A DNA stretch of 64,000 nt from Candidatus Binatia bacterium. Its GTDB lineage: Bacteria; Desulfobacterota; Binatia; Bin18. The position numbers were made by a program, and so were the translations under genes. This document shows positions 38,845 to 64,000 of the stretch, in pieces. Position 1 is the first letter of the stretch; each line of letters begins with the position of its first letter. Location of the stretch: assembly GCA_963664395.2 (NCBI GenBank), contig OY761159.2, positions 1,280,001 to 1,344,000 on the forward strand, written 5' to 3'. Under the pieces are notes generated by a model. It was not told the DNA's origin. It saw nothing but the letters and a program-made list of their open reading frames with translations, and did no database searches.

Positions 38845-39972
38845 CTACAACGTTTTCTCGAATACCCGGTAGGTCTTGTATATCCGGGCGCCCATGCGTT
38901 CGAGACCACGCTGCATGCTCCAGTTATCTTCAAGAATCCACGAACATTCCACGAGACGATAGCCATACGCGAGTACGTGCTGCCAGAGTTTGAGATACAG
39001 CATAGCGTCAAGACCACGCACCCGCACATCCGGATTGGTCCCCAGCAAAAGCACCCGGAGCGCGTCGATTCTGCGTTTGTACCAGAGCAATTTCAGCGCC
39101 CCCAACGGGAATAGCCGGCCATTCATGCGCCGGAGTACCTGATTGTAATCCGGCAGGGCAAGAGCAAAACCGACGGGCCGATTATCCAATTCCGCGATAA
39201 GGCACAGCTTGGGGTCAGCGACGAGGCGAAGCGTGTGCGCAAGCAGATCCACCTCAGCTTCAGTCATCGGTACGAAGCCCCAGTTGTGTTCCCAAGCCCT
39301 ATGGTAAATACCGTGCAACAGGCGGACTTCTTCTTCGAATCGCCGTACATCGATTGACCTGATAGTGATGGCCTGTTTCCTCTGTAGCCGCTGTACCCCA
39401 TGCACGAGCCGCTCGGGGATAGTCGCGTCTTCACGCAGGTCAATGAGATACGCCAACAGATCCTTGGCCTTGGCATAGCCCGCGGTTCGGATCAGCCGGG
39501 CATAGTAGGGACGATGGTGGGACATCATCACCATGGGGGCCGTATTGAAACCATTGACCAACAATCCACATTCCTCGTTGGTCGAGAAGCTCATCGGCCC
39601 CCGAACGCTCCGCACCCCGCGCTGACCGACCCACTGTTCCGCAGCGGCCAATAACGCCTGGGCAACATCCTGGTCGTCGATACTCTCAAAAAATCCGAAG
39701 AAGCCAACCGACTCGTTGTGAAATTGGATATGCCGATGGTTGACAATGGCCGCAATCCGTCCCACGACCTGCCCATTCAGGCGGGCAAGAAAATATTGGA
39801 CATCAGCGTGTTTGTGGAAGGGATGCTTTTTTGGAGAGAGGAGTTTTTTCAGATCAAAAAGCAGCGGCGGGACCCAAGCCGGGTCATCGCTATACAGCTG
39901 CCACGGCAGTTGCGTGAACTGGTGAAGATCCTGCCGGTTACGGACCGGAGCTATCCGTACATCTCTGGACAT
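38845..39972 (-). CDS. bcerS: Double-GNAT acyltransferase, bacterial ceramide synthase (bCerS)-like
   Basis: WVPPL, GRIAA, FGFFE, GLLVNGF, NWGFVP, LPDYN, SWILEDN; immediately downstream of spt. Confidence 0.8.
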   Translation of the reverse strand: MSRDVRIAPVRNRQDLHQFTQLPWQLYSDDPAWVPPLLFDLKKLLSPKKHPFHKHADVQYFLARLNGQVVGRIAAIVNHRHIQFHNESVGFFGFFESIDDQDVAQALLAAAEQWVGQRGVRSVRGPMSFSTNEECGLLVNGFNTAPMVMMSHHRPYYARLIRTAGYAKAKDLLAYLIDLREDATIPERLVHGVQRLQRKQAITIRSIDVRRFEEEVRLLHGIYHRAWEHNWGFVPMTEAEVDLLAHTLRLVADPKLCLIAELDNRPVGFALALPDYNQVLRRMNGRLFPLGALKLLWYKRRIDALRVLLLGTNPDVRVRGLDAMLYLKLWQHVLAYGYRLVECSWILEDNWSMQRGLERMGARIYKTYRVFEKTL

Positions 39973-40044
39973 CTATAGCGTGGCACAGCGTCGTGGGTCT
40001 GCTCGGCACTCGCTGAAACATTGCACAGCACAGAGGAAACGCTC

Positions 40045-41238
40045 CTACACGGCAACCTTCTCTACCTGGATGTGAGGCCGAGTACGGGCAAAGGCGTCTA
40101 AGACAAAGTCAATCTGTTCATCGGTGTGTGTTGCCATCATGGAAATCCGAATCCGACACGAATTCTCAGGCACGGCCGGTGGAATAACCGGATTGGTAAA
40201 GATACCGGAATCAAATAATTCCTTCCAGATCATGCCCATCAACCACATATCTCCGACAATGATAGGAATCACCGGCGTATCACTCGTCCCGATATTATAG
40301 CCCAGACTCTTGAGCCCGGCCTGCATGCGGCGGGTATTGCGCCACAAGGCGACACGCCGTTCGGGTTCTTCTTCAATAACCTGAAGGGCAGTTAACACGG
40401 TGGCCAGCGACGGCGGTGGCATACTGGCGCTGAAAATCAAAGAACGGGCATGGTGTTTGATATAGTGAATAACCGGCTCCGGCCCGGCCACCACACCGCC
40501 AATCGCGGCTAAAGACTTTGAGAATGAAGACATAATGAGGCCGACCCGGTCCTCTACATCGAAATGCTGCGCCGTACCACCACCGTTCTTGCCTAACACT
40601 CCAAAGGCGTGGGCATCATCAACCATAATCTCGGTCTGGTACTGCTCGGCGAGGGCAACCAGACTCGGCAGGTCTGCGATATCGCCTTCCATAGAAAAGA
40701 TGCCGTCGGTGACAATAAGCTTCCCGGCCTTGGGCGGTGTCTTCCGAAGCTGCTGTTCTAGTGTTTCAAGGTCCCCATGCGGATAGCGGAGCACGGTCCC
40801 GTGGGAGAGCTGAGAACCGTCTACCGCGCTGGCATGATCGAGCTTATCAAGGTAGAGATAGTCGCCTTTTCCGATCAAGGTCGACAGGATACCTAAATTT
40901 GTCTGGTACCCCGTGCTAAAAACGAGCGAGGCTTCTTTGTTGAGAAAACGGGCCAAGCGCGCTTCGAGTTCATCGTGCAAATCCAGCGTCCCATTTAAGA
41001 AGCGGCTGCCGGTACACCCACTGCCATAGCGTCTGAGAGCTGCCTCGGCTGCCTCCAACACCTTGGGATGGTGGGTGAGGCCGAGATAGTTATTGGAGCC
41101 CATCATCACCTTGGGCTCACCTCGCACGACGACTTCGGTTCCTTCAGACGATTCTATGGGTGTAAAAAACGGATAATACCCGGTCGCTTGAGCCTCTCGA
41201 GCACGAGTAAAGCGAGCACATTTCTCGAAAAGGTTCAT
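40045..41238 (-). CDS. spt: Serine palmitoyltransferase (alpha-oxoamine synthase family)
   Basis: GSNNYLGL, GCTGSRFLNGT, DHAS, DGIFSMEGD, DDAH, FSKS, ARSLIFSAS; flanked by cerR-like and bcerS-like genes. Confidence 0.82.
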   Translation of the reverse strand: MNLFEKCARFTRAREAQATGYYPFFTPIESSEGTEVVVRGEPKVMMGSNNYLGLTHHPKVLEAAEAALRRYGSGCTGSRFLNGTLDLHDELEARLARFLNKEASLVFSTGYQTNLGILSTLIGKGDYLYLDKLDHASAVDGSQLSHGTVLRYPHGDLETLEQQLRKTPPKAGKLIVTDGIFSMEGDIADLPSLVALAEQYQTEIMVDDAHAFGVLGKNGGGTAQHFDVEDRVGLIMSSFSKSLAAIGGVVAGPEPVIHYIKHHARSLIFSASMPPPSLATVLTALQVIEEEPERRVALWRNTRRMQAGLKSLGYNIGTSDTPVIPIIVGDMWLMGMIWKELFDSGIFTNPVIPPAVPENSCRIRISMMATHTDEQIDFVLDAFARTRPHIQVEKVAV

Positions 41239-41337
41239 CCCGTCCCCCTCTCTCCATGACATCCCCGATTGTCAGTTTGCATGACATGTTGCGGTTCCGG
41301 TTTCACCCCAATCTCCCAACCCTACCAACGGTGTTCG

Positions 41338-42396
41338 CTATAACCATGTCTGTTGTTTGTACCATGCTGCTGTTTCAGCAAATCCAGTTGCCATCGGAAT
41401 CTGCGCCTCAAATCCTAACTCCCGCTTGGCCAGCGCAGTTTCGCACAGCCAAGCAGGGGCGAAGAGTTCCTTGACTTTTTCGCGATTGAATATCGTTGCT
41501 CGCCCTCTGACCGCCGCTCCGCCTTCGCTCACAGTTGCCGCCATCTGCACCAGAAACCATGGGATACGAACCATACGGACTGAGCGCCCAACGGCCTGAC
41601 TTATACACGTGGCAATTTCGCTCCAGGCATAGGATCGTGATTCCGCCACGTGATAGATCCCACGCGCGCGTGGCATTATGGCCGCGCGTAGCAGCGCCTG
41701 GACTAAATCTGCAACGTGGACGAGCTGCACAATTCTCTCCGGGCCGGCCGGCATCAGCAAAACACCACGGGCGGCGAGACGGAAGAGCAAAAAGAAATCT
41801 TTCTCCCGTGGGCCATATACCACCGGCGCACGCAAGCTGACGACCTCGAAAGCGTCGGACGCAGCCAAGCAGGCTTGTTCTCCAACGAGCTTACTCCGCC
41901 CGTAGGCAGTAATAGGGTGTGGCTCGTCGTGCGGTTCAACAGGCTGTCCCTCTCGTGCCGGGCCCGCTGCCGCGAGTGAACTGAGATACACCAGTCGTTG
42001 CGGACGCGGTTGCGCAGCCCGCATAGCCTGAACGAGCAGCTGCGTCCCCTCGGCATTCGAGCGCAGATACTCCTCCTCTGAGCGGGCTTTTGTGACGGCC
42101 GCAATATGGAAAACCGTATCAACTTGAGAGACAGCTCGCATAAGGCTGTCTCGATCTTCTAGCGAGCCTTGGATCAATTCGACCTTTTCGACCTTGTCAG
42201 CCTTATCACAGGCAAGTCGAGAAATATCACTCGTAGGGCGCACGAGAACGCGCGGCCAGACGCCTTGTTTAATCAGTGCATCAACAAGGTGCGAGCCAAT
42301 AAAGCCAGTCCCCCCCGTCACAAGGACACGGGTGCCTGCCTTCACCAGCGGAGTGCGTGGTGTTATCCCTCGGGTACTCACAGTAGCTCGAATCAC
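41338..42396 (-). CDS. cerR: NAD-dependent epimerase/dehydratase, ceramide reductase (CerR)-like
   Basis: TGGTGFIG, SSLAAAGP, YGRSK, VYGPR; upstream of spt. Confidence 0.7.
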   Translation of the reverse strand: MIRATVSTRGITPRTPLVKAGTRVLVTGGTGFIGSHLVDALIKQGVWPRVLVRPTSDISRLACDKADKVEKVELIQGSLEDRDSLMRAVSQVDTVFHIAAVTKARSEEEYLRSNAEGTQLLVQAMRAAQPRPQRLVYLSSLAAAGPAREGQPVEPHDEPHPITAYGRSKLVGEQACLAASDAFEVVSLRAPVVYGPREKDFFLLFRLAARGVLLMPAGPERIVQLVHVADLVQALLRAAIMPRARGIYHVAESRSYAWSEIATCISQAVGRSVRMVRIPWFLVQMAATVSEGGAAVRGRATIFNREKVKELFAPAWLCETALAKRELGFEAQIPMATGFAETAAWYKQQTWL

Positions 42397-42586
42397 GTGA
42401 AGTCGGACGCTAGATAACAGATTTCCCCAATTTAACCAAGGGGCAACATAAATACCATAGGAGTTTTATCAGAAATAACGTCGTTTTTGAGTGTGCAGTT
42501 CTCTCTCATTCCTCAACGCTCTCTTGACAACACTATTCTGAGCGCTCTTTATAGAGACCTCTCATCCACGTTGGAAAAGTCTCTTT

Positions 42587-43735
42587 ATGCCGACCGGCCG
42601 GAACAAATGGGGTGGCGCAGTGCAACCGAGCGATTCGTCTGTCACGTCTCTTCGTGACCTTTCTGAGGAGATATCAGACGAGCAGCTCGTCGCGCAATTA
42701 CGCAAGCGCTTTGCCGCCACGTTCCAACTCAACGCGAGCCTCTATTGGCTTGACCTCTTGCTGTCTTCTCTTTTGGGGTGGATTGCCTTTTGGTTGAGTG
42801 TGCAACAATCATTCGGCTCTCTTGCCTATCTCGCAACTACGAGTATCGCCCTCATAGCTCTCCTCCGCGCAGCCTTATTTATTCATGAAATTGCCCACTG
42901 TAAGCGGGGCAGCCTGCCTGGTTTTGAATGCGGCTGGCATGCCTTGGTCGGCCTGCCTTTCATGCTTCCCAGTCTCATGTATGTGGGCTCCCATGGGGAT
43001 CATCACCGGCCTCACACCTTCGGTACAACGAGCGACCCCGAGTATGCGCCGCTCGTTCACGGCAATATCCTCGGTCTGACGTGGTTTGTTCTCGGTGTCC
43101 TCATCATTCCCGTCTTATTGCCCCTACGATGGGGCCTCATCGGTCCTTTTTCGTATGTTGTCCCCCCGCTGCGAAAAATCGTTATTCAGCGTGCTTCAAC
43201 CCTTGTGATCAATCCTGCCTATCGCCGCCCTCTGCCTGGAAAACGGCAGAGGTTGCGTTGGCTCGTACAAGAATGGGCAGCCGCGCTGGTAGCTTGGCTG
43301 GTGTGCGCAAGCTGGCTTGCCGGGCAGTTTCCGACCGCCTGGCTCATGCAGTGGTATATCGTTACGGCTGGCATGTTGATAGTGAACCAAGTCCGGACTC
43401 TAGCGGCCCATCGCTATGACAATACCGGGCGGCGGTTGAGTGTGGCCGAGCAACTGCTCGATTCTGTCAATTTGTGTGGCTGGCCAGTTTTGACCGTTCT
43501 CGCCGCCCCCGTAGGTCTCCGCTATCACGCCCTGCACCATCTCGTACCGAACGTCCCCTACCACAGTCTCGGTCGGCTCAATCGTCAGTTACAAGAGGTC
43601 TTGCCTCCCGCTTGTGTCTATCAGCAGACAATGGAACGCGGTATTCTCTCGGCTATCCACAGTCTGGTACGACGGATGGGCCGGAGTCGCAGCTCTTCAA
43701 CGCTTAGCGAAGAGCACGTTGGCGAAGAAGCTTAA
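42587..43735 (+). CDS. Membrane fatty acid/sphingolipid desaturase
   Basis: His boxes HEIAH, HGDHH, HALHH; transmembrane segments. Confidence 0.85.
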   Translation: MPTGRNKWGGAVQPSDSSVTSLRDLSEEISDEQLVAQLRKRFAATFQLNASLYWLDLLLSSLLGWIAFWLSVQQSFGSLAYLATTSIALIALLRAALFIHEIAHCKRGSLPGFECGWHALVGLPFMLPSLMYVGSHGDHHRPHTFGTTSDPEYAPLVHGNILGLTWFVLGVLIIPVLLPLRWGLIGPFSYVVPPLRKIVIQRASTLVINPAYRRPLPGKRQRLRWLVQEWAAALVAWLVCASWLAGQFPTAWLMQWYIVTAGMLIVNQVRTLAAHRYDNTGRRLSVAEQLLDSVNLCGWPVLTVLAAPVGLRYHALHHLVPNVPYHSLGRLNRQLQEVLPPACVYQQTMERGILSAIHSLVRRMGRSRSSSTLSEEHVGEEA

Positions 43736-44738
43736 ACAACACCGGCCAGCCTAAGAGCAGTGGATAGCGCCGTTGTCGCTCTGAGAGCTCAACCCACACC
43801 CCGGTATGCCGCCCCAGCTTCCATAAGACATAGGGCAGCCAGTCATCAAATGTCAGCGCGGTTTTGAAGAGTCGCACGGCATACAGGCATTTTGCCCCTG
43901 TCGCCCGGACAGCCCAACTCAATCTCCCTGTCCAGCGTGTGAGCCGTGGCATAGAGACCAACCACTGTCCATCTTTTTCTCGGCAGGCACACCTCCCCTG
44001 CTGCTCCAGTAGTTGGAGCCCTAAGCGTGCGACTTGGTCATAGCGCTCGGGGGATGCTTCGTATACTGCCCGGATGGTTTCCGGTCGTTCGGTCCGAAAC
44101 TCAGTCCGATACGTCTCTCGAAACCCTCTCTGCCAGAGGTCGGCGGGGTGAAAGGACCGGGTCAGATTATTCCGTGCGAAAAATGGAAGAACGCGAGAGA
44201 GAAACGTCAGCGTGGCTTGCGTGGCTGCGTGTATCACCCTGTCCTGCACCACCTCACTGCGTACAAACACGAGAAGCGCCGGCTGACAGAATCGGGCCCA
44301 GATAATAGCTGGGACAACGGCTGGAGTGGTGGCGCACTCAAAATCCGCAGTCGAGATAACCGCATACTTCGCCCGCAGAGTCTGCGCTCCCTGCCCGACC
44401 TCAATATAGAACACATTCGGCGGCAGCAGAGCGTTCAGTATGCGGAGCGCGGCCATCTTGGCCGCGCATAGTCGCGGGCTGGAAGTCCGCGCTCCGTCTA
44501 GGGGCCTTTGATAGAAAGACCGGTACGAGCGGACAAGAACGTAAAAGTCGAGAACAGCATCAGCCATCTGCTGTGTTCGGAGGCAAGAGCCATAAAACAA
44601 TACGGCGTCCACCGCCTCACCATGGCGCTGCTGGATTTCCGTAGCAATAATCCGCGCTGCTTCAGGCACCGGCCGGGTCCACTCTCGGGCCAAGAGAGAC
44701 GTGAGGGCAGGAAGAGGCGGTTGCAAATAGTCGCGCAT
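43704..44738 (-). CDS. Tam41-like nucleotidyltransferase-fold protein (Caulobacter CpgC-like)
   Basis: LFYGSCLR...LDFYVLV, LPPNVFY, KYAV, WARFCQP, TYRTEFRTE, YVLWKL.RH. Confidence 0.7.
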   Translation of the reverse strand: MRDYLQPPLPALTSLLAREWTRPVPEAARIIATEIQQRHGEAVDAVLFYGSCLRTQQMADAVLDFYVLVRSYRSFYQRPLDGARTSSPRLCAAKMAALRILNALLPPNVFYIEVGQGAQTLRAKYAVISTADFECATTPAVVPAIIWARFCQPALLVFVRSEVVQDRVIHAATQATLTFLSRVLPFFARNNLTRSFHPADLWQRGFRETYRTEFRTERPETIRAVYEASPERYDQVARLGLQLLEQQGRCACREKDGQWLVSMPRLTRWTGRLSWAVRATGAKCLYAVRLFKTALTFDDWLPYVLWKLGRHTGVWVELSERQRRYPLLLGWPVLFKLLRQRALR

Positions 44739-44740
44739 AC

Positions 44741-45766
44741 TTACGCTCGAATAAAACGGAGTCGATGGTCTGTAGAAAGATGCAGTGTCCGGTCCGGCTC
44801 CGGCTCAAAGAGTTCCCCATCAATGGTAAAACCGCAGTCCATCTGCATAGTCAGACGCTCAACATTATGACTGCAATAGCCCGAGTCCAGCGCAAACGGA
44901 GGAGGGGGAAACCCGCGTAAAACCTTCCATACAGCAACAGGGCTACGCACGGCATTGGCCGCAATAGCGGTAAAACGGAGCGGGGCAGGCTCTTGTCCCC
45001 AAAACGGACAAATACGGAGTAAGAGCCGTTTCAGTGTGGTCGCCATCATGAGTTGAAGCGGCTTTTTTTCAAGCCGGTCTACTGGCGTCTCCTTTTCCAG
45101 TGGCTTTCGGTAGGGGTGGGTTTGAAACCCGCCCGTACAGAGACCAATTTCATCCGGAGCAAACACGCCGCGGTGTGAACCGCTCGCTACCTGCAGGAGG
45201 GCTCCACCTAAAAAGAGTCCGGCGCCGAATAAACCCTGTAAACGCCGCTTGGGATAGAGCTGATGCTTAAAGGTCAGCGCCCGCTGGATCACACCGGCAC
45301 CGAAAAACATGCCATATTGAGCGCGCGTGCCTGGTCCGGAGTCGATTCGCAACACCGGCCGCTTCACTACGCGCTGCTCAAGCGTATTGGCCTGCATAGC
45401 GCGGATCAAGGCGACGAGGCCGGCGGCCGGCGTACCGGTACTGCCAATATCCGTCGCGTTCATATTTGTTCGTCCGCCAGACAAGGGAGCAATAGCCGGC
45501 AGCGACTCAAAGATCGTGCGTTCCAAGACCTCAGTCAACACACGTTGCAGCGTGCCATCTCCGCCATCGACAGCGAGGAGGGTCACACCGTGGTGCGCGA
45601 GGCGGGCAAGCGCGTCAGGCACTTCTGCACTCGATCCGGTCGTCACATGCACGACCTCAGGCGCGTTCTTGAGTACCTGCCTGAGCGCAGTCAGGGAGGA
45701 GGAGCGGGTTTCAAACCCGCTCCTCCTGTGACCGGCCTGGCAATTACTGAAGAGACCCAGTCGCAC
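44741..45766 (-). CDS. Diacylglycerol/ceramide kinase family protein (CpgB-like)
   Basis: GGDGT, GGRTNMNA, GMFFGAG, IDGE. Confidence 0.85.
   Translation of the reverse strand: MRLGLFSNCQAGHRRSGFETRSSSLTALRQVLKNAPEVVHVTTGSSAEVPDALARLAHHGVTLLAVDGGDGTLQRVLTEVLERTIFESLPAIAPLSGGRTNMNATDIGSTGTPAAGLVALIRAMQANTLEQRVVKRPVLRIDSGPGTRAQYGMFFGAGVIQRALTFKHQLYPKRRLQGLFGAGLFLGGALLQVASGSHRGVFAPDEIGLCTGGFQTHPYRKPLEKETPVDRLEKKPLQLMMATTLKRLLLRICPFWGQEPAPLRFTAIAANAVRSPVAVWKVLRGFPPPPFALDSGYCSHNVERLTMQMDCGFTIDGELFEPEPDRTLHLSTDHRLRFIRA
45110..45138. repeat. GTAG-type REP palindrome inside the kinase CDS
   Basis: GTAGGGGTGGGTTTGAAACCCGCCCGTAC. Confidence 0.8.
45697..45727. repeat. Second REP-like perfect palindrome inside the kinase CDS
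   Basis: AGGAGGAGCGGGTTT-C-AAACCCGCTCCTCCT; 15-bp arms with the same GGGTTTnAAACCC core. Confidence 0.8.
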
Positions 45767-48238: not shown

Positions 48239-48365
48239 ACCGCTCCTCCTCTGTCACGCGATAGCTCGACCAAGGCCATGCCTGGGCCACAGCGTTCGAG
48301 TGAGCGGTCTTATCATACGCCAGGGAAGTGGTATAGGCTGGCTACAGTTGCGTATATTGAGAATT

Positions 48366-49313: not shown

Positions 49314-49388
49314 CAACACTTTACGCTTGACTCATCCACCAGCCAGGAGCTAGAAGCAGAGCAGCATCTGATAACAGAGTGTGTGATT

Positions 49389-50423: not shown

Positions 50424-50542
50424 AGACCTAGCCCGCGCCCCTTCTCCCCTCTCTATTACGAGCACGGCTCTGGAGGAGAGTGATCCCTTCGCTTGTTATC
50501 GATTAGTGGTGAGCCTTGGGTTTCCCTCTATGGCTTGAGGTA

Positions 50543-51238: not shown

Positions 51239-51247
51239 AGCACCCCC

Positions 51248-52784: not shown

Positions 52785-52936
52785 GTCGGCATTGTAGACG
52801 GCGGAGAGAACGATGCAATTCCTGTTTTGTAGAGAGAGTGTCTGGGACCCAGCCGACCAGTAGACGACGCGTCACCCCCCTTTTCCCCTTATCGCCACCC
52901 GGCTAGACTACCCAGCACTCAGAGGAGGGATATTTT

Positions 52937-54193: not shown

Positions 54194-54219
54194 TGCCCCA
54201 GTAGGGAGTTTCCCGACTC

Positions 54220-55962: not shown

Positions 55963-55969
55963 AAGGCAT

Positions 55970-57208: not shown

Positions 57209-57984
57209 CCCCACTCGTTTTCCTGCGTCACGGCCAGAGCGTATGGAATCAGGCCCGTCGTTTCACCGGCTGGGCCGACGTTCCGCTCAGCCCAGATGGA
57301 CAACAGCAGGCCAGACGGGCCGCCCAACTCATCCGGGCTGGTGGATTTTCCTTTGATGTATGTTTTACCTCATGTTTACAGCGTGCGACAGACACGCTGC
57401 AGATTATCCTCACAGTCCTCAACCCTGAGCTCTCGCCACCCGCAGTCCATACGAGCTGGCGGTTAAATGAGCGGCATTACGGCGCGCTGCAAGGGCTCAA
57501 CCGACAAGACGTCGCTCAGCAGTACGGACACGAACAGGTTGTGGTCTGGCAGCAGCATTTTGATATTGCTCCGCCGGCCTTGGACCCGACCGACCCACGC
57601 TTCCCCGGACATGACCCTCGCTATGCCGACCTCACAGACCTTGAGCTGCCACGCACGGAAACGCTGAAAGATGTGCGAGCCCGGGTGCTGCCCTACTGGC
57701 ACGACGTCATTGTCCCGAAGATCAAGAACGGTCAGCGGATTTTCGTTGTGGCGCATGGCAACAGCCTGCGCGCCCTGACCACCTATCTGGATGGCGTGGC
57801 CGCAGAAGATATCCCACGGGTGAAACGTCCCCTGACGGGCGAACCCTTTGTATACGAGTTTGACCAGAACGCCGTCCCACGCCGGCACTATTCCCTCCGC
57901 CGGGCTCCAAAACTGCAACGCTGGCTGAAGACGAAGCTCGGACAGCGGCATTCCCGGTCAAAGGATCGTCCGGGGGTGGGATAG
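57205..57984 (+). CDS. gpmA: 2,3-bisphosphoglycerate-dependent phosphoglycerate mutase
   Basis: LRHGQSVWN..RFTGW.DV, WRLNERHYGALQGLN, AHGNSLRAL; ATGA overlap with the ELM1 gene. Confidence 0.9.
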   Translation: MTPLVFLRHGQSVWNQARRFTGWADVPLSPDGQQQARRAAQLIRAGGFSFDVCFTSCLQRATDTLQIILTVLNPELSPPAVHTSWRLNERHYGALQGLNRQDVAQQYGHEQVVVWQQHFDIAPPALDPTDPRFPGHDPRYADLTDLELPRTETLKDVRARVLPYWHDVIVPKIKNGQRIFVVAHGNSLRALTTYLDGVAAEDIPRVKRPLTGEPFVYEFDQNAVPRRHYSLRRAPKLQRWLKTKLGQRHSRSKDRPGVG

Positions 57985-58047
57985 GCACTCCGGCCCTGAT
58001 GGAATATCAAGCTTGGCAGCGGCAGTGGATGGAGTAGGATACATTGC

Positions 58048-58761
58048 ATGCACTATCTTGATCTCAACCGGGTCAATACTATTGACCCGGCAGCTTTTCA
58101 AGCACAGAAGCCCTATCCCTGGATCAACCCGCAGGGATTACTCACCCCAGAAGGCTATCACAGACTTTTGGCGCATCTGCCCGCGCAAGAACAGTTCACA
58201 CCCAGCTTTGGCAGACAGCGCGCCCACGGCCAGCGCAGTCATGACCGTTTTATGTTGGCCTATCACGACGCCCTCCCGGTGGCCCAGGAATGGAAAGATT
58301 TTATTGCCGAGCTGCGTGGCTCGACCTATCAGGATTTTCTCGGTCGTTTACTCGGCACGCGCGCTTTCGAACTACGCTTTCACTGGCACTACACCCCGCG
58401 CGGCTGTTCCATCTCGCCCCATTGCGACGCCAAGCATAAGCTTGGATCATATATTTTTTATTTCAACACCGAACAGGATTGGGACCCAAGCTGGGGGGGT
58501 CAGACCTTGCTCCTCGACGACGGAGGTCGCTTCCCACGCACCTCCGCGCCAGAGATAAAGGAGTTTGATAGCGTCTCACCCTCACACGCCATGGGCAATT
58601 CCAGCCTGCTCTTCGCCCGCAACGGCAGCTCCTGGCACGCCATGCGGCCGCTGCAGTGCCCGGAAGACCGGCTGCGCAAGGTCTTTATCGTTGTGATAAA
58701 TCACTTTGGACCGGTCGAACGTTTGAAACGATTTTTTGGCTGGAAAGCGAAAGGGTATTAA
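58048..58761 (+). CDS. 2OG-Fe(II) oxygenase
   Basis: PYPW, SPHCD, WGGQTL, SWHA..P..R.VF. Confidence 0.85.
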   Translation: MHYLDLNRVNTIDPAAFQAQKPYPWINPQGLLTPEGYHRLLAHLPAQEQFTPSFGRQRAHGQRSHDRFMLAYHDALPVAQEWKDFIAELRGSTYQDFLGRLLGTRAFELRFHWHYTPRGCSISPHCDAKHKLGSYIFYFNTEQDWDPSWGGQTLLLDDGGRFPRTSAPEIKEFDSVSPSHAMGNSSLLFARNGSSWHAMRPLQCPEDRLRKVFIVVINHFGPVERLKRFFGWKAKGY

Positions 58762-59181
58762 GCGGAGGCGAGAGAAAAAATTTTCTTCAATGGGTTAAGA
58801 CAAGCTGCATTCCCGACTGAAGCTTATCAAGATACGGCTGAGTTGCCGTATAATACCTGTTGTGGGCGGAACGGTCGCCAATAGTCTTTGCCTCTGTAAG
58901 CGCATTTTTTAGAGCCTTTTTCGATTCACGGCCTAAAGGGAGCCCAGATGGTTCCACAGCGCGGTTAATAATATCTTTAAGTATAAAATAATTATTGTCT
59001 TGTCGAATTTCTGCCCCTAGCCATAGAAGCCCTCCTGACAGACGTATTCCTCGCCTGTCGGTAATGAAAACTGTTCGTCAAACGCTAGAGACGTTTGACA
59101 GAAATTCGGCGCAACCTTGCGCCGAGAGAACCTTCCAGAAATAATACCCTTTCACTTTTCCGCCCTGAAGAGGAATTCTCT

Positions 59182-59886
59182 ATGACTACCAGCCCACACT
59201 GTTTAGTTATCGGTGTTGGACCCGGTTTGGGCATGGGCTGCGTGCGGCGCTTTGCTGCCGGTGGCTACCGGGTGTCGATGATCGCCCGGCATGCCGGGCG
59301 GCTGGAGTCGTGGGCTGCCGAAATTGACGGCAGCGCCGGATTTCCCGTGGATGTCGCCGCTGAGGGCGCATTCCGCCGGACGCTCAGCCACATTGTCGCC
59401 GAGCACGGACTGCCGGAAGTCGTGGTGTATAATGCCGCGCGGGCGACGTTGGGGCATTATAGCGACATCAGCATGGAGGACTTTGCACTCAATTTTCGCA
59501 CGAATACCGCCGGCCTCCTGATCCTTGCCCAAGAGTTGGCTCCGGCCATGGTAGAACGCGGTTCCGGTTCGCTCATGGTCACCGGCAATACCGGTTCGCT
59601 ACGGGGCACGCCGAATTTTGTGGGTTGGTCCCCAACCAAGGCCGGACAACGTATCCTGGCCGAATGCCTGGCCCGCGAGCTTGGACCAAACGGGATTCAT
59701 GTAGCCTATATTGTCGTTGATGCCCTGATCGATATGCCCTTTGCCCGTCGCGGCTTCCCCGACAAGCCCAAAGATTTCTTTTCCCAGCCAGCAGATTTGG
59801 CAGAAACGGTTTTTCAGACCGCCCATCAGCCCAAGTCCGCCTGGTCGTTTCTGGTTGAGTTACGACCGTTCGGGGAAAAATGGTAG
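59182..59886 (+). CDS. Short-chain dehydrogenase/reductase
   Basis: GVGPGLG, YNAA, TGNT, ARELGPNGIHV, ELRPFGEKW. Confidence 0.9.
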   Translation: MTTSPHCLVIGVGPGLGMGCVRRFAAGGYRVSMIARHAGRLESWAAEIDGSAGFPVDVAAEGAFRRTLSHIVAEHGLPEVVVYNAARATLGHYSDISMEDFALNFRTNTAGLLILAQELAPAMVERGSGSLMVTGNTGSLRGTPNFVGWSPTKAGQRILAECLARELGPNGIHVAYIVVDALIDMPFARRGFPDKPKDFFSQPADLAETVFQTAHQPKSAWSFLVELRPFGEKW

Positions 59887-59951
59887 CCATTTCCCACCCG
59901 TTTGCAGAGCGTTGATAGGTTCAGCCGGCTTTATCGAGAACGAGGACAGCA

Positions 59952-61109
59952 ATGGATCATGAGTTGAGCGCCGAAGAAACGCAATTGGTCGAGACTGCGA
60001 AAACATTTGCCGCAGAAAAAATTGCCCCTTTTGCCGCAGAGTGGGAACTCAACCGGACAGTGCCTCTCTCTCCCTTCCGGGAGGCAGCAGCCGTGGGCCT
60101 CACCGGAGTGCTGGTACCCAAAGCAGTCGGTGGACAAGGTGCCAGCCATATGGCGGCTGCCAGAGTACTGGAGGAGCTGGCCGGGGCGTGCTTTGCCTTT
60201 ACCTTTAGCCTCTGGGTCCACAACAACATGCTCAACACTATTGCCCGCAATGGCACGCCGGACCAAATCGAGCGCTACGTTCCACCGATGCTGGCAGGAG
60301 AAAGAATCGGGGCGTTTTGCTTGACGGAGCCCGGTGCCGGCAGTGATGCCGCAGCGATTACAACACTAGCCGAGAAATCGACTGACGGCTGGCGGCTGAG
60401 TGGAGAGAAAGCCTGGGTCACAAATGGCGTCAGTGCAGATGTGTTTGGAGTCTATGCTCAGACCGCCCACGCCCAGGGCTGGCGGGGTATTGCCAGCTTT
60501 CTGATGGCTGGAGATACCCCAGGTCTTGAACGCACACCACAGTACACCATGCTTGGTGGCCATGCGTTGGGAGCCGCTGGTCTCGCGCTGACACACTGTC
60601 CGGTTCCCGAGGCAGATATGCTGTTTGGCCCAGGAGACGGATTTAAGGCGGCCATGCGGGGCATCAATATGGCGCGGACGTTTGTTGGTGCGGGCTGCTG
60701 TGGCATGCTGCATGCCAGCCTCAAAACCGCATTGGCGTATGGAGCAAAGCGGCACGCATTTGGCAAACCGATTCTGAGCTTTCAGGGCCTGCAATGGGAA
60801 CTTGCCGACGTGGCAACTGATCTTGAGGCGGCGCGGTTACTGACGTATCGCGCCGCTGCGACCCTGGACCGGGGGGAGAGCGCCGTTGCTGAGGCCGCAC
60901 ACGCCAAGAAATTCGCCAGCCGAGTGGCGCTCACAGGCGTCTCACAGTGTATGCAGGTCATGGGCGCAGAAGGATTACGCACCAACAGCCCACTTGGTCG
61001 GCACTTGGCCATGGCCAAGATGACTCAATACATGGACGGAGCGACGGAAATTCAGAATATTGTGATCAGCCGCACGCTGCTCAAAGAATACGGCCTTGAC
61101 GTTGGGTGA
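59952..61109 (+). CDS. Acyl-CoA dehydrogenase family protein
   Basis: FCLTEPGAGSDA, GEKAWVTNG, R.AFGKP, DGATEIQ. Confidence 0.92.
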   Translation: MDHELSAEETQLVETAKTFAAEKIAPFAAEWELNRTVPLSPFREAAAVGLTGVLVPKAVGGQGASHMAAARVLEELAGACFAFTFSLWVHNNMLNTIARNGTPDQIERYVPPMLAGERIGAFCLTEPGAGSDAAAITTLAEKSTDGWRLSGEKAWVTNGVSADVFGVYAQTAHAQGWRGIASFLMAGDTPGLERTPQYTMLGGHALGAAGLALTHCPVPEADMLFGPGDGFKAAMRGINMARTFVGAGCCGMLHASLKTALAYGAKRHAFGKPILSFQGLQWELADVATDLEAARLLTYRAAATLDRGESAVAEAAHAKKFASRVALTGVSQCMQVMGAEGLRTNSPLGRHLAMAKMTQYMDGATEIQNIVISRTLLKEYGLDVG

Positions 61110-61182
61110 GAGATTTTCCCGGACGCTGCTTTACCTCTCTCCAACGGCGTCGTCGTTCAGGAGCGGGAAGCCGGCGAGAAGG

Positions 61183-62004
61183 TCAACGCGTCTCGCAAAA
61201 CCGCTCAAACAACCCTGGGTCGATCCTCTTCTTTTTTCTCTCAAAGAAATACATCTTGGTCCAGGCAGCGAAATAACAGAGTTCTATGAAGGGCAGATAA
61301 GGACGAAAGTCAGGCACACCGTCTCGAAAGAGATGCTGGAAAAAGGGGGTTTGAAACGGACCGAGCCAACGGGCCAAAGCGCTTGTCACACCCGTTCCAA
61401 TCAATTGATCCTTACGCAAACTGTCTGCATCAACGCCGCATACCATGCCATCTCTGTGGGTTACGATGAAATTTTTGCGGACGGCGTCCACATAATCAAA
61501 TCCTATCCAGACGGACTCCGGGGCCAGTTTCTCCGCAGCGGTACCGAGACTACGGTATACAGACTCTGAAAGAATGCCGACCTGATTGAGGATGGAAAGG
61601 TCACGCTGGAGCCGATACAAGACGGTCGTCTCCGCTATACTCACGGCCTGAGCACTGTGGCGATACGTCGCTGCGTAGAAATTCGCTATCTTTTCGACTA
61701 GGGCGGCATCGACAGTGGTAATCGGGCTGCCCTCAACATATTCGAGCCACAGTTCATGCTCATACCGGATGGCAACGGCCGGGAAATAGGGACTGCCTTT
61801 GAATGCCTCTAAATTTCGCTCGAATTCCGCCGCAAGCGCAGTGTCGCGCAGAATGAGCCGTTTGAAACGTTTCCCATTGCGTGTTGTAAACAGAGTCTGT
61901 TGCGAGTTTTGGAGACGGTTGCCAACCGCACGGGAGCACAGATACCGTAACCGCCGCGCAAGACGGAAGGTCTTTGCCTCAGCCGAGAAGCGTCCTCTCA
62001 ACAT
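61183..62004 (-). CDS. Hypothetical protein, possible APH/protein-kinase-like fold
   Basis: KRFKR, LEYVEG, DYVDAVRKNF, GVDADSL resemble kinase catalytic and DFG-like loops. Confidence 0.55.
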   Translation of the reverse strand: MLRGRFSAEAKTFRLARRLRYLCSRAVGNRLQNSQQTLFTTRNGKRFKRLILRDTALAAEFERNLEAFKGSPYFPAVAIRYEHELWLEYVEGSPITTVDAALVEKIANFYAATYRHSAQAVSIAETTVLYRLQRDLSILNQVGILSESVYRSLGTAAEKLAPESVWIGFDYVDAVRKNFIVTHRDGMVCGVDADSLRKDQLIGTGVTSALARWLGPFQTPFFQHLFRDGVPDFRPYLPFIELCYFAAWTKMYFFERKKKRIDPGLFERFCETR

Positions 62005-62007
62005 AGA

Positions 62008-63252
62008 ATGCTCATGAATATATCAACAACCAGTAATGGAGGAAATCCCCTTGGCCATACAGATGGCAGACATATTGGGATTTTTGTCCGCTCGTTTGGC
62101 GGCGGCGGCGGCGCGGAGCGCGTTATGCTCAACCTTGCCGCAGCATTAGCCGATCGCGACTATCGTATTGATCTCGTTATGGGCCGTAAAAAAGGGCATT
62201 TCCTGGAGGAAATTCCAGACACTGTCAATATCGTTGATCTCAGTCCCCCTTCAGCACATCGGCTGTTACCCACGCTGATGAATATGCGGCATATCAGTAG
62301 GCTACTCGGTTCAGACGTATTCAACCGCAAAGCCGCCTGGATTTTCGGGATTGTCCCCGCCTTGGCAGCATACCTGAACAGTCGGCAGCCCACGGTTCTA
62401 TTGTCCGCGCTCGACTACACCAATATTGCCGCACTGTTAGCGCAGCGTTTGAGCGCGAGTTCGACACGTCTGGCAATCAGCATACATAATCACCTGTCTA
62501 CGGCCGCAGCACGAGCGAGCAAACCGCACGAACGGAAAATCCCCCAACTGGCCCGCCGTTTCTACCCCGAGGCGGACCGGATTGTTGCGGTGTCGGATGG
62601 CGTCGCTGCCGATCTGGCTCAGGTGATAGACGTACCGCGCTCGCGCATTGCAACGATTTATAATCCTATTTTTCGTCCGGAGATCCTCATTCAGGCTCAA
62701 GCGCGACTCGATCATGCCTGGTTTACTCCAGGCGCTCCCCCTGTGATCCTCGCTATTGGCAAACTCAAGCCTCAGAAAGATTTTGCCTGTCTGATTCGAG
62801 CATTTGCTCGCGTTCGAGCTATACGTCCGGCTCGGCTACTCATTCTCGGCGAAGGGCCACAGCGAGAAGCGCTACTCTCTCTGGCGCGCAAACTCAATGT
62901 CGAAAATGATGTGGCTCTGCCTGGTTTTGTCGCCAATCCTTTTGCGTATATTGGCCGGGCCGCCGTCTTTGTCCTGTCTTCTGCCTGGGAGGGACTGTCG
63001 AACGTCATTATCGAAGCGCTCGCCTGCGGCTGTCCAGTGGTGAGCACAGATTGTCCGAGCGGCCCGGCGGAAATCCTGGACGGAGGAACGTATGGCAGGC
63101 TCGTGCCTGTGGGAGATGACGCGGCCTTAGCCAATGCCATCTTGGCAACGCTGGACAATCCTCCCCCTCGGGACCGCTTACGCGACCGGGCACAGTTCTT
63201 CTCCGTTGACTGCGCGGTCGAGCGCTACCTCGACGTTCTGCTGGGAGATTGA
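62008..63252 (+). CDS. GT4 glycosyltransferase (WabH-like)
   Basis: GGAERVMLNLA, IYNP, KDF..LI.AF, SSAWEGLSNVIIEALACG, DCPSGPAEIL. Confidence 0.92.
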   Translation: MLMNISTTSNGGNPLGHTDGRHIGIFVRSFGGGGGAERVMLNLAAALADRDYRIDLVMGRKKGHFLEEIPDTVNIVDLSPPSAHRLLPTLMNMRHISRLLGSDVFNRKAAWIFGIVPALAAYLNSRQPTVLLSALDYTNIAALLAQRLSASSTRLAISIHNHLSTAAARASKPHERKIPQLARRFYPEADRIVAVSDGVAADLAQVIDVPRSRIATIYNPIFRPEILIQAQARLDHAWFTPGAPPVILAIGKLKPQKDFACLIRAFARVRAIRPARLLILGEGPQREALLSLARKLNVENDVALPGFVANPFAYIGRAAVFVLSSAWEGLSNVIIEALACGCPVVSTDCPSGPAEILDGGTYGRLVPVGDDAALANAILATLDNPPPRDRLRDRAQFFSVDCAVERYLDVLLGD

Positions 63253-63280
63253 ATGAGACTCGTGAAGGTTGGCGTGGGCA

Positions 63281-64000
63281 TTACAGCTCGACGCTCGGCA
63301 GGGACGCTGGCAGCGCAGCTAGCGAAGCCGATAGACGGGAGAAGTGGGTGCGGACTTGGGCCAAATCTTCCGGCGTATCAGTCTCGGCCCACCACAGGCC
63401 CTCGATTGAGGCGACTTCGACTGAGTTGGATGAGTCGGCCATGGAATCGATGACTGACAAATACCAGCGCTGGAGCGAGGTTGGATCGCGCATGGCTTTC
63501 TCCACAGTAGCCTGAAATGCGTTCACGCCAGTGGCGCGAAACGTCATGAGCCCGATAGATTCGCCATGCACAACAGCCGGTGGCAATGTTTTCCCAACCG
63601 CCGCAAGGCTGCGCTCGTGTCGAATCGAGACCTTCATGTCATCGTCGTCATAGCTTGGCTTCCGATCTATAGCCAGGGTTACAGGGGCAAGCGGAGCGCG
63701 CAGGAGACGCTCTAACACAGCGGGTTCAAACAAGGTATCGCCGTTCAGCAGGACAAAATCCTCAGTCATCTCCGGGATGGCTGTCCAGCACGTGGCGAGA
63801 TTATTCGATACTGCAAAAAAAGGATTAAAGCGGGTGGTCACTGCGATCTCTGGCAGCAGGCTGCGGGTGAGAAAGTCTGCTATGAAATCTTCTACTTGGT
63901 CTGCCCCAAACCCGACCATCACCGTCACGTGTTGAATACCGCACGCGGCGAGAGCCCGGAGTTGGATTTCCAGAGCGGGCCGACTCCCGTCAACTGCTAA
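63281..64000 (-). CDS. Phosphocholine cytidylyltransferase (LicC)-family NTP-transferase, CpgD-like (5' end outside window)
   Basis: Frame open to the window edge; FNPFF..NNL.TCW, LNGDTLF, YDDDDMKV, GESIG, WAETD..DL. Confidence 0.82.
   Translation of the reverse strand, partial: LAVDGSRPALEIQLRALAACGIQHVTVMVGFGADQVEDFIADFLTRSLLPEIAVTTRFNPFFAVSNNLATCWTAIPEMTEDFVLLNGDTLFEPAVLERLLRAPLAPVTLAIDRKPSYDDDDMKVSIRHERSLAAVGKTLPPAVVHGESIGLMTFRATGVNAFQATVEKAMRDPTSLQRWYLSVIDSMADSSNSVEVASIEGLWWAETDTPEDLAQVRTHFSRLSASLAALPASLPSVEL

Follow-up and report, generated by a model that had tools for sequence, protein, structure and literature searches.

In bacterial ceramide synthesis the serine palmitoyltransferase Spt acts first, bCerS second and CerR third. 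The closest described system to the locus presented here is the Caulobacter crescentus cluster for the ceramide phosphoglycerates (CPG and CPG2), CC_1152-CC_1168 (ccna_01210-01223), which shows the order CC_1158 (phosphoesterase), CC_1159 (CpgA), CC_1160 (CpgB), CC_1161 (CpgC), CC_1162 (Spt) and CC_1163 (acyl carrier protein, ACP) (PMC11324152, PMC9393093). CpgC contains an InterPro cytidine diphosphate (CDP)-diacylglycerol (DAG) synthase domain and might yield a ceramide activated with a nucleoside diphosphate (Olea-Ozuna et al., PMC11324152). CpgD is structurally closest to inositol-phosphate cytidylyltransferase, yet its product is CDP-glycerate and its preferred substrate D-2-phosphoglycerate; the authors of that study consider a dedicated enzyme for phosphoglycerate production possible (PMC12275187). 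How Caulobacter proceeds from ceramide-1-phosphate to CPG and CPG2 has yet to be defined. By the account in PMC9393093, CpgC homologues were found by BLAST only in Caulobacterales and Sphingomonadales, and PMC11324152 describes the cpg pathway as conserved in "some other proteobacteria". The locus described here lies at positions 38845-64000 of a 64,000-nt stretch of a Candidatus Binatia genome (contig OY761159.2, positions 1,280,001-1,344,000; hereafter the window), and it is probably a chromosomal biosynthetic locus for an anionic phosphosphingolipid, similar in kind to the CPG/CPG2 cluster of Caulobacter, with a different set of accessory genes.

The locus contains 23 open reading frames (ORFs), and 55 ORFs were scanned across the whole window. 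Families were assigned with Pfam and NCBIfam scans and motif checks, and proteins of unassigned family were scanned again with relaxed Pfam settings (E up to 5). The ceramide genes form a single run on the minus strand, as a first-pass annotation made from the sequence had read them. The first gene encodes a CerR-like NAD-dependent epimerase/short-chain dehydrogenase (SDR) (41338-42396; PF01370, E 4.6e-37), the second the alpha-oxoamine synthase Spt (40045-41262) and the third a bCerS-like GNAT acyltransferase (38845-39972; PF00583, E 2.1e-8), so that GNAT and SDR/epimerase genes flank spt on the same strand. There is no CerR-specific NCBIfam model, and the best match of the CerR-like protein in that collection is HpnA, below its cutoff. 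The best NCBIfam match of Spt is NF047600, the Bacteroidota-type SPT-CFB (521 bits), followed by the betaproteobacterial SPT (391 bits), bioF (387 bits) and Kbl (370 bits). Among PDB structures the Sphingobacterium SPT (3a2b/8guh) reaches 422.6 bits, the Sphingomonas SPT about 297 bits and KBL/BioF-type chains 271 bits or less. The oxoamine synthase thus scores best as a serine palmitoyltransferase nearest to the Bacteroidota type; a grouping with BioF or Kbl, which the first-pass annotation had named as the outcome that would speak against it, is not seen by score, SPT being ahead by 130-150 bits (NCBIfam, PDB).

The locus might also serve something other than sphingolipids: the oxoamine synthase would then make the precursor of another aminolipid, and the CDP-alcohol, kinase and Tam41 genes described below would act on glycerolipids. 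Spt does not reach the curated NCBIfam cutoff, structures of cysteate-C-fatty acyltransferase and KBL also match it strongly in the PDB (about 255-271 bits), and Tam41 and PgsA-type enzymes normally use phosphatidate and CDP-DAG. However, in the PDB the SPT structures lead every other oxoamine synthase by at least 150 bits, spt has bCerS-like and CerR-like genes on either side within one run, the three ceramide genes and the head-group module share an alphaproteobacterial cluster whose layout resembles the experimentally defined one of Caulobacter, and homologues of bCerS, Spt and CerR lie beside the module in 27, 16 and 18, respectively, of 80 related loci. This alternative is very improbable, and the three genes are taken below as the ceramide core of a sphingolipid locus.

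Upstream of cerR, and divergent from it, lies a gene encoding a membrane fatty-acid desaturase/hydroxylase (42587-43735, plus strand; PF00487, E 1.3e-25), which is convergent with the Tam41-like gene; its three His boxes (HEIAH, HGDHH and HALHH) agree with the desaturase label given to it earlier. None of the 23 locus ORFs shows an ACP or AMP-binding domain (Pfam). Because the locus has no gene for an ACP or an acyl-ACP synthetase and its Spt is Bacteroidota-like, the Spt substrate is probably an acyl-CoA rather than an acyl-ACP. Directly downstream of bcerS there is a further ORF (38306-38659, minus strand, 117 aa), without a family match and not an ACP by Pfam, which is a candidate gene only.

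The first head-group operon is located on the minus strand and contains four genes: a CDP-alcohol phosphotransferase (CpgA-type, transferase 1; 46955-48238; PF01066), a membrane-anchored protein of 404 aa with a predicted AttH-type fold (45744-46958), a lipid kinase of the DAGK/LCB5 type (CpgB-type; 44741-45766; PF00781, E 3.5e-9) and a protein of 344 aa with a predicted Tam41 fold (CpgC-type; 43704-44738). An ATGA start/stop overlap couples the transferase 1 and AttH-fold genes, and the Tam41-like gene starts 2 nt past the kinase stop. Divergent from this operon is a gene encoding a calcineurin-like metallophosphoesterase (CC_1158-type; 48300-49313, plus strand; PF00149, E 7.6e-14). Domains, motifs and predicted folds bear out the first-pass reading of this region as an operon of CDP-alcohol phosphotransferase, unknown, lipid kinase and Tam41-like genes with a neighbouring phosphoesterase; the unknown, which had been called secreted, is indeed a gene without a family match, and its product has an N-terminal hydrophobic membrane anchor.

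Transferase 1 shows an intact catalytic motif, D-x2-DG-x2-AR-x8-G-x3-D-x3-D, at residue 269, and its PDB matches are phosphatidylinositol-phosphate (PIP) synthases and AF2299. In both CDP-alcohol transferases of the locus the N-terminus is extended by a soluble part of about 200 aa (about 220 aa in transferase 1, including a QQGS repeat) without a family match in Pfam or NCBIfam. This extension is retained in a Roseomonas CDP-alcohol transferase, whose alignment begins at residue 35 of the window protein, and is suspected from the sequence to be a degenerate nucleotidyltransferase-like domain. The transferase 1 gene also contains an in-frame tandem repeat (47832-47878; 12-nt unit, 3.9 copies) that gives QQGS repeats in the linker, and the AttH-fold gene contains another (46781-46844; 15-nt unit, about 4 copies) that gives PLFAA/PVFAA repeats right after the anchor; both may vary in length between strains. 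The kinase shows the GGDGT motif at residue 68 and is a candidate CpgB-type ceramide kinase.

The Tam41-like protein belongs to a large family: 1160 representative clusters fall within E 0.001, and 724 of E 1e-10 or better. PF09139 (Tam41_Mmp37) is matched by 16 of 60 aligned relatives (best E 1.4e-7), and the family profile matches the Tam41 structure 6ig2 at E 4.1e-5. The AlphaFold2 (AF2) model has a mean predicted local distance difference test score (pLDDT) of 93, and Tam41 structures take all five top places in Foldseek (E 4e-8 to 4.5e-7; TM-score 0.54-0.65). In the comparison with Tam41 structures, identity is only 13-16% and the TM-score 0.44-0.65. The earlier "Tam41-like" label holds at the level of fold, by the PF09139 matches of the relatives, the profile and Foldseek alike. 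The fold is that of the mitochondrial and bacterial Tam41/Mmp37 CDP-DAG synthases (6ig2, 6ig4, 7ecd); unlike in these, the genetic context is one of ceramide and not of phosphatidate, and ceramide-1-phosphate is the proposed substrate. We propose, from the modelled fold and this context, that the protein is a CTP:ceramide-1-phosphate cytidylyltransferase, and its Tam41 fold agrees with the reading of CC_1161 by Olea-Ozuna et al.

The AttH-fold protein shows no Pfam match, also at relaxed E up to 5. Its AF2 model (pLDDT 84) is an all-beta double barrel, similar to AttH and CrtC, and the best Foldseek match is AttH NE1406 (2ich, E 1e-11), followed by kievitone hydratase, the CghA/Phm7/Fsa2 cyclases and 25-phosphosteroid lyase. 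The family with this fold binds or transforms hydrophobic molecules.

A tblastn search of a plasmid collection with the Tam41-like protein gave 17 records, of which 13 are Roseomonas replicons. The region 269071-293922 of Roseomonas mucosa NZ_CP147881.1 begins with genes encoding an NTP transferase, a 385-aa hypothetical protein, a protein of the sterol desaturase family, two LptF/LptG proteins, an HIT protein and a DUF2141 protein. Its middle part contains a metallophosphoesterase gene on the minus strand and, on the plus strand, genes for a CDP-alcohol phosphatidyltransferase, a protein of the diacylglycerol kinase family and a hypothetical protein, followed by a family 39 glycosyltransferase (GT39), a pyridoxal phosphate (PLP)-dependent aminotransferase and an ACP. 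The last part encodes a flippase, a family 4 glycosyltransferase (GT4), an ELM1/GtrOC1 protein, two hypothetical proteins, an SDR, a fatty acyl-AMP ligase and a protein of the phosphocholine cytidylyltransferase family. By annotation, the core of this cluster follows the order of CC_1158-CC_1163 except for the GT39 gene in between.

Ten genes of the window are reciprocal best hits (BLASTP in both directions) of genes in the Roseomonas cluster, with 32-49% identity. Three belong to the ceramide core: the bCerS-like protein (40%, to the 385-aa hypothetical protein adjoining the NTP-transferase), Spt (41%, to the PLP enzyme) and the CerR-like protein (33%, to the SDR). Four belong to the head-group operon and its divergent neighbour: the Tam41-like protein (35%, to the hypothetical protein in the position of CpgC), the kinase (32%), transferase 1 (44%) and the phosphoesterase (42%). 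The other three are an NTP_transf_3 nucleotidyltransferase (44%), an ELM1 protein (32-33%) and a nucleotidyltransferase at the window edge (49%, to the phosphocholine cytidylyltransferase family protein), which are described below. A second CDP-alcohol transferase of the window shows only 34% identity to the Roseomonas enzyme, and seven genes, those for the HtrA, SnoaL, 2-oxoglutarate (2OG) oxygenase, SDR (59095-59886), acyl-CoA dehydrogenase (ACAD), 273-aa and 231-aa products, have no counterpart in the Roseomonas cluster by BLASTP. Ten reciprocal best hits in a cluster that comes from an alphaproteobacterium and has a Caulobacter-like order are strong indirect evidence, at the level of sequence, that the window encodes counterparts of CpgA, CpgB, CpgC, CpgD, CC_1153 and CC_1158.

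The two nucleotidyltransferases reported by the first-pass annotation both exist, but only one of them is located between the phosphoesterase and the second operon. This CC_1153-type gene (51942-52784, minus strand) encodes a MobA/CofC/KdsB-like NTP_transf_3 protein (PF12804, E 1.7e-13) with weak NCBIfam matches to KdsB (9.1e-8) and CofC (1.1e-5) and a PDB match to TTHA0179 at 1e-16. The other gene, CpgD-type (63281-64000, minus strand), encodes an IPCT/LicC-like nucleotidyltransferase and is cut by the window edge, which supports the earlier view that the locus continues beyond it. This protein matches the N-terminal part of NF041135 (E 2.8e-7) and, with relaxed Pfam settings, PF12804 (E 0.0014), and gives no PDB sequence match; the visible part excludes the N-terminus, the place of the CpgD residues R16 and K26 (the third conserved residue being D112).

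The second operon is located on the plus strand and contains genes for CDP-alcohol phosphotransferase 2 (transferase 2; 52937-54193; PF01066), a half-size ABC exporter with a transmembrane domain and an ATPase (54220-55962; PF00664, PF00005), an ELM1/GtrOC1-family protein, a putative GT-B-type transferase (55901-57208; PF06258, Mito_fiss_Elm1, E 3e-56), and GpmA, a 2,3-bisphosphoglycerate-dependent phosphoglycerate mutase (dPGM; 57205-57984; TIGR01258). An ATGA overlap couples the ELM1 and gpmA genes. These four genes are as the first-pass annotation gave them; it had also counted the 2OG oxygenase gene that follows as part of the operon and the pathway, and that gene is present (58048-58761, plus strand; PF13640, 2OG-FeII_Oxy_3, E 7.2e-6), but its membership is unsupported, with no homologue in the 80 related loci.

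Transferase 2 shows an intact catalytic motif at residue 270 and 34% identity to transferase 1 over 369 aa. A quick maximum-likelihood tree of CDP-alcohol transferases places it in a clade of 11 rows (the window, nine Binatia-type loci and locus L071) with a branch of 1.79 and an SH-aLRT support of 100, and transferase 1 falls among the other 42 rows, which hold the Roseomonas enzyme. A mere recent tandem copy was considered for transferase 2 and rejected, given the 34% identity and the long separate branch. The ABC exporter is of the HepA/MsbA/PglK kind (best NCBIfam matches HepA, 272 bits, and MsbA, 222 bits, both below cutoff) and is a candidate lipid flippase. Its homologue adjoins transferase 2 in L001, L005, L009 and L071, and transferase 2, the exporter and ELM1 follow each other in L009 and L071, where the flank lets it be seen. 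No LptF_LptG domain is found in the window locus by Pfam; the ABC exporter is there instead. The ELM1 protein gives no PDB sequence match. GpmA reaches 284 bits with TIGR01258 (cutoff 81.7) and 256.6 bits with E. coli GpmA (1e58) and contains the RHG motif; by sequence it is a canonical dPGM.

The operonic gpmA is the best single argument for a phosphoglycerate head group, which is argued from this gene together with the orthology to the Cpg proteins; the argument is circumstantial, because gpmA could be a housekeeping copy. One other locus, the gammaproteobacterial L055, shows gpmA adjoining the CpgD-type gene. The same enzyme logic could instead place a different head group on ceramide: phosphoinositol, phosphoglycerol or a Kdo-like sugar acid. 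Such a head group would suit the best matches of the CDP-alcohol transferases, which are archaetidylinositol-phosphate (AIP) synthase, PIP synthase and IPCT/DIPPS, those of the edge enzyme (the IPCT half) and of the other nucleotidyltransferase (KdsB), and the PDB matches of transferase 1. KdsA-like genes in eight of the 80 related loci keep the sugar-acid variant open there. The inositol and Kdo matches in NCBIfam are, however, all far below cutoff, no inositol-1-phosphate synthase domain is found among the 55 window ORFs or among 29 extra neighbour ORFs of related loci, and no KdsA-like gene is found in the window locus by Pfam. CpgD itself is nearest to inositol-phosphate cytidylyltransferase by structure and yet makes CDP-glycerate (PMC12275187), gpmA lies inside a window operon, and the reciprocal best hits of the window genes lie in a cluster of Caulobacter-type order. 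We consider another head group unlikely, and a phosphoglycerate head group is the one inferred for the window locus.

Two further systems pair comparable enzymes. The IPCT/DIPPS and the PIP/AIP synthase systems likewise combine a nucleotidyltransferase with a CDP-alcohol phosphotransferase, and the matches of the window proteins to them are weak; unlike in IPCT/DIPPS, the N-terminal part (about 190 residues) of both window transferases does not match the IPCT half, and the scores are far below cutoff. The authors of the CpgD study draw an analogy to TagD/TagF teichoic acid synthesis, in which a membrane-associated transferase adds a phosphodiester from a CDP-linked donor made by a cytidylyltransferase (PMC12275187). 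The window shares with it a GT-B-type protein (ELM1), and differs in that no TagD or TagF family match is found in the window and a sphingolipid would be the acceptor; a phosphotransferase role for ELM1 is speculation.

The window locus and the Caulobacter cluster have in common Spt, a GNAT ceramide synthase, an SDR reductase, a DAGK/LCB5 kinase, a CDP-DAG-synthase-like protein, a CDP-alcohol phosphotransferase, two nucleotidyltransferases and a phosphoesterase, and show the same core order of phosphoesterase, CDP-alcohol transferase, kinase and CpgC-type protein. Unlike Caulobacter, the window belongs to Binatia and not to Proteobacteria, and it has the AttH-fold gene inserted between the CDP-alcohol transferase and the kinase, a second, divergent CDP-alcohol transferase, and an MsbA/HepA-like ABC exporter, with no LptC/F/G paralogues seen in the window. 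It has no ACP or acyl-ACP synthetase gene (AcpR/AasR of "Rhodobacteria" type), contains gpmA, ELM1 and GT4 genes, and has an Spt nearest to the Bacteroidota type. The Roseomonas cluster contains, and the window does not, genes for ACP, fatty acyl-AMP ligase, two LptF/LptG proteins, an oligosaccharide flippase, GT39, a sterol-desaturase-family protein, HIT and DUF2141; conversely, the AttH-fold gene, the second CDP-alcohol transferase, the ABC exporter and gpmA are in the window and missing from the Roseomonas cluster. An AttH-fold gene inside the core operon is common to the window and Myxococcota-type loci and is not found in the Roseomonas cluster.

To find related loci, one genome per species was scanned with a 16-sequence alignment of Tam41-like proteins, and the best 80 of 582 confirmed relatives were kept. 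The 23 window proteins were compared with these loci by tblastn (E up to 1e-5, at least 40% query coverage, flanks of 10 kb). The resulting counts are lower bounds, since many contigs are of 3-12 kb and the flanks of 10 kb, and the region to the right of the ABC exporter, including the gpmA position, is beyond the reach of the flanks in the closest Binatia loci. Taxon labels are given as deposited. The best loci are chromosomes of Candidatus Binatia metagenome-assembled genomes (MAGs), with 89, 82, 80, 79 and 75% identity in the Tam41-like protein; Binatia (phylum Candidatus Binatota) is found in 11 of the 80 record titles. L001, a Binatia MAG, shows 99% identity in the bCerS-like protein and 95% in Spt, and the window is accordingly assigned to a Binatia bacterium. 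The other titles include Myxococcota/Myxococcales, "Deltaproteobacteria", Desulfobacterales, Geobacter, Syntrophus, Nitrospiraceae, several Gammaproteobacteria, Calditrichota, Spirochaetales and one Patescibacteria.

The kinase is the most frequent neighbour (69 of 80 loci), followed by the phosphoesterase (59), the NTP_transf_3 nucleotidyltransferase (51), the CDP-alcohol transferase (41), the AttH-fold protein (32), the desaturase (29) and, after the bCerS-like homologues counted above, the edge-type nucleotidyltransferase (21, with 41-56% identity). The ABC exporter is found in 16 loci, as often as Spt, and ELM1 in 11; gpmA is found in a single locus. The kinase homologue lies directly upstream of the Tam41-like gene in all of the 21 loci that have a kinase among 25 inspected gene orders, the phosphoesterase keeps the same divergent position in its 59 loci, the AttH-like gene keeps its position in its 32 loci (31 of the 32 candidate rows were used in the AttH-like alignment, and L023 was left out for a stop codon), and the desaturase homologue adjoins the Tam41-like gene in its 29. 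The order phosphoesterase (minus), CDP-alcohol transferase (plus), AttH-like (plus), kinase (plus) and Tam41-like (plus) extends from Binatia to Myxococcota and a MAG labelled Spirochaetales, and the same order without the AttH-like gene is shown by loci labelled Desulfobacterales, Geobacter, Syntrophus and Gammaproteobacteria. Because homologues of the module recur within 10 kb of 80 Tam41-like genes, the clustering of the locus genes is not due to chance.

Other recurrent neighbours in the 80 loci are LptF/LptG permeases (25 loci), AMP-binding proteins (13), major facilitator superfamily transporters (8), KdsA-like proteins (8) and lipid A acyltransferases (8), with SDRs and others besides; none of the LptF/LptG or AMP-binding loci belongs to Binatia. 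Among the recurrent and the ELM1-adjacent neighbours there is no inositol-phosphate synthase, and no glycerate enzyme except GpmA in L055. The KdsA-like (DAHP_synth_1) genes are found in L022, L023, L025, L031, L035, L041, L044 and L047: seven of these loci are titled Myxococcota/Myxococcales or "Deltaproteobacteria" and one, L025, Gammaproteobacteria. In L047 the KdsA-like gene (1732-2805) is located between the CpgD-type nucleotidyltransferase gene and ELM1. These genes hint at a sugar-acid step or at linkage to lipopolysaccharide (LPS) genes in those lineages.

Two loci titled "uncultured Enterobacteriaceae bacterium", L008 (CAZXFE010000004.1) and L011 (CAZCWX010000514.1), show a Binatia-type locus with the same gene order. 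The CDP-alcohol transferases of L008 group inside the Binatia clades of the quick tree (L011 has no tree row), and both labels are probably wrong. A further locus, L081, on the 270-kb Qipengyuania citrea plasmid NZ_CP098495.1 (10925-13343), shows only the kinase, the Tam41-like and a DUF2141 gene together. This Sphingomonadales module lies apart from other sphingolipid genes, which fits the scattered arrangement described for Sphingomonadales (PMC11324152).

Seven genes and a glycosyltransferase complete the locus. Two follow the phosphoesterase and precede the CC_1153-type gene on the map: an HtrA-like serine protease with a PDZ domain (49383-50423, plus strand; PF13365, PF13180) and a SnoaL_2-domain protein with a repeated N-terminal segment (51248-51964, minus strand; PF12680, E 1.8e-8), with an ORF of 231 aa without a family match in Pfam or NCBIfam (50543-51238, minus strand) between them. 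HtrA homologues are found in 10 of the 80 loci, nine of them with Binatia titles and the tenth being the syntenic L008, and SnoaL homologues in eight, seven titled Binatia and L008. The protease is a lineage-specific neighbour whose pathway role is unsupported. The 231-aa ORF is found in none of the 80 loci and is missing also from the close relative L001, where the matching gap is of about 340 bp; it may not be a real gene.

To the right of gpmA the locus contains, besides the 2OG oxygenase gene, an SDR gene (59095-59886, plus strand; PF00106), an ACAD gene (59952-61109, plus strand; three ACAD domains), a gene for a 273-aa protein (61183-62004, minus strand) and a GT4 gene (62008-63252, plus strand; PF13692, PF00534, PF13439). 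The 2OG oxygenase barely passes its family threshold (PF13640, 27.3 bits, gathering cutoff 27) and shows an HCD motif at residue 125. The SDR has only weak matches, with 25-28% identity (8 of 80 loci), as has the ACAD, with 23-32% (5 of 80), and the 273-aa protein has a homologue in one locus. The latter ORF, called kinase-like in the first-pass annotation, exists but shows no Pfam or NCBIfam match, and the sole lead for that name is a language-model resemblance to APH/choline-kinase families: in an Atlas feature search with the gene, a row that starts at rank 3 (score 0.97) accounts for 19 of 30 matches, with PF01636 (APH) as its family set. The protein is possibly an APH/choline-kinase-like phosphotransferase, as a lead only. 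The GT4 gene was identified correctly in the first pass; a 46% homologue adjoins bCerS in one locus, the Syntrophus-labelled L080, and the GT4 of the Roseomonas cluster is barely similar to it (E 2.4e-4 over 52 aa) and non-orthologous. The earlier gene list was otherwise mostly right, with the HtrA-like protease, the SDR and the ACAD omitted.

These genes bear on the extent of the locus. The sphingolipid unit may comprise only the region of about 38845-57984 together with the GT4 gene and the edge nucleotidyltransferase gene, the 2OG oxygenase, SDR, ACAD, kinase-like, HtrA, SnoaL and 231-aa ORFs being unrelated and an extended tailoring function an over-reading. Homologues near the module are few: none for the 2OG oxygenase and the 231-aa ORF, one for the kinase-like gene, and eight and five, at 23-32% identity, for the SDR and the ACAD. 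Those of HtrA and SnoaL all lie in loci titled Binatia or in the syntenic L008, and none of the seven has a Roseomonas counterpart. On the other hand, the doubtful genes are located between supported members, gpmA to the left and the GT4 and CpgD-type genes to the right, and the gaps are short; in the closest Binatia loci the 10-kb flanks end before the 58048-62004 region; and L001-L008, the nearest loci of Binatia type, retain HtrA and SnoaL in the same position. This narrower extent is a serious possibility, a little short of an even chance. The larger variant pathway claimed in the first-pass annotation thus stands in part: the ceramide core does lie beside counterparts of all six Caulobacter head-group genes, but the 2OG oxygenase and kinase-like genes are unsupported as tailoring genes (0 and 1 of 80 loci).

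A phosphosphingolipid locus of this kind would work as follows. Spt would condense serine with an acyl thioester, probably an acyl-CoA; the bCerS-like GNAT would N-acylate the product, the CerR-like reductase would reduce the keto group to give ceramide, and the His-box enzyme would desaturate or hydroxylate an acyl chain. The DAGK-type kinase would convert ceramide into ceramide-1-phosphate, which the Tam41-fold enzyme would turn with CTP into CDP-activated ceramide, the activation step that Olea-Ozuna et al. suggest for CC_1161. The two nucleotidyltransferases would make CDP-activated donors of three-carbon acids, with 2-phosphoglycerate, the preferred CpgD substrate, supplied by the operonic gpmA product. 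The two paralogous CDP-alcohol phosphotransferases would perform the phosphodiester transfers that add three-carbon acid units; it is impossible to decide from the sequence which of them uses CDP-ceramide and which CDP-glycerate. The metallophosphoesterase would trim a terminal phosphate or nucleotide, the ABC exporter would be the flippase that takes the product across the inner membrane, further decoration may come from the ELM1/GtrOC1-type and GT4 transferases, and the membrane-anchored AttH-fold barrel may bind or process the lipid.

A more specific scheme, rather doubtful, is that this CDP-lipid route mirrors phospholipid synthesis: the Tam41-fold enzyme would make CDP-ceramide, a CDP-alcohol phosphotransferase would couple it with a three-carbon acid, the module and its AttH-fold partner would be ancient, present in at least seven phylum-level groups rather than in a few Proteobacteria, and in Binatia the second CDP-alcohol transferase, a dedicated gpmA and the MsbA-like exporter would lead to exported oligo-phosphoglycerate ceramides. 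If so, these ceramides could serve Binatia as LPS-like lipids of the outer leaflet.

Several points weigh against an anionic phosphosphingolipid of the Caulobacter kind. The head group is a prediction from genes, and the CpgA-D orthology is based on published domain descriptions, synteny and a Roseomonas cluster known from annotation. The Spt score of 521 bits compares with a curated NF047600 cutoff of 640, the bCerS-, CerR- and kinase-like proteins receive no name from any NCBIfam model, and the Tam41-like protein taken alone shows no Pfam match at E up to 5, so that it is not filed as a member of PF09139. The CDP-alcohol transferases and the CpgD-type enzyme match AIP synthase, PIP synthase and IPCT/DIPPS best in NCBIfam, all below cutoff, the CC_1153-type enzyme matches KdsB slightly better than CofC, and the KdsA-like genes of the eight loci belong here as well. 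The gpmA gene may be a plain housekeeping gene, given its co-occurrence with the module in 1 of 80 other loci, and pathway membership of the 2OG oxygenase, SDR, ACAD and 273-aa genes is unsupported by the sequence comparisons. Scans for promoters and terminators over 44001-64000 gave numbers in line with shuffled expectation (8 against 7.3 and 19 against 18.2) and are uninformative on the operon limits.

The lineage had been called unexpected by the first-pass annotation. Binatia does lie outside the lineages named in the cpg papers, but it is unexpected only to a moderate degree, as Black Sea MAGs had already yielded Spt-like genes from 38 phyla, by which the number of potential producer phyla grew from 9 to 40 (PMC11334938). 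The string "Binat" is absent from the main text of that paper, a literature search gave no paper that joins Binatota with sphingolipid, a broader one gave only papers on eukaryotic ceramides, with Binatia in none of the ten listed, and a full-text search gave none that mentions CDP-ceramide. The window locus and its relatives contradict both published limits, that of CpgC to two orders and that of the pathway to proteobacteria, and suggest that ceramide chemistry with acidic head groups reaches well beyond Proteobacteria. In terms of genes, the locus is a known CPG-type logic in a new phylum with new accessory parts, and its head-group module is widespread. A CpgC-position protein with a confidently predicted Tam41 (CDP-DAG synthase) fold bears on the undefined steps of CPG synthesis, and the new candidate parts are the AttH-fold protein, the second CDP-alcohol transferase and a phosphoglycerate mutase encoded in the operon, in keeping with the preference of CpgD for 2-phosphoglycerate. 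The locus and its 80 relatives provide testable enzymes from many lineages, and an anionic sphingolipid is predicted in the envelope of Binatia, an uncultured group for which no lipid literature was found.

The GC content across the locus is 0.55-0.60, like that of the remainder of the window, and gives no compositional hint of recent transfer; a tRNA scan of the window found none, and hence no sign of an island boundary. Outside the locus, the minus-strand region 31659-34801 of the window contains a gene for a pyrroloquinoline quinone (PQQ)-dependent dehydrogenase of the methanol/ethanol family (TIGR03075, 712 bits, cutoff 480). After it comes one ORF in which a periplasmic binding protein similar to MoxJ (TIGR03871, 308 bits) is fused with a cytochrome c at the C-terminus. 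Both fit a methylotrophic or alcohol-oxidising lifestyle. A further minus-strand gene (28853-31705) encodes a 950-aa protein composed of a zinc ribbon, an adenylate/guanylate cyclase domain and an AAA_16 ATPase.

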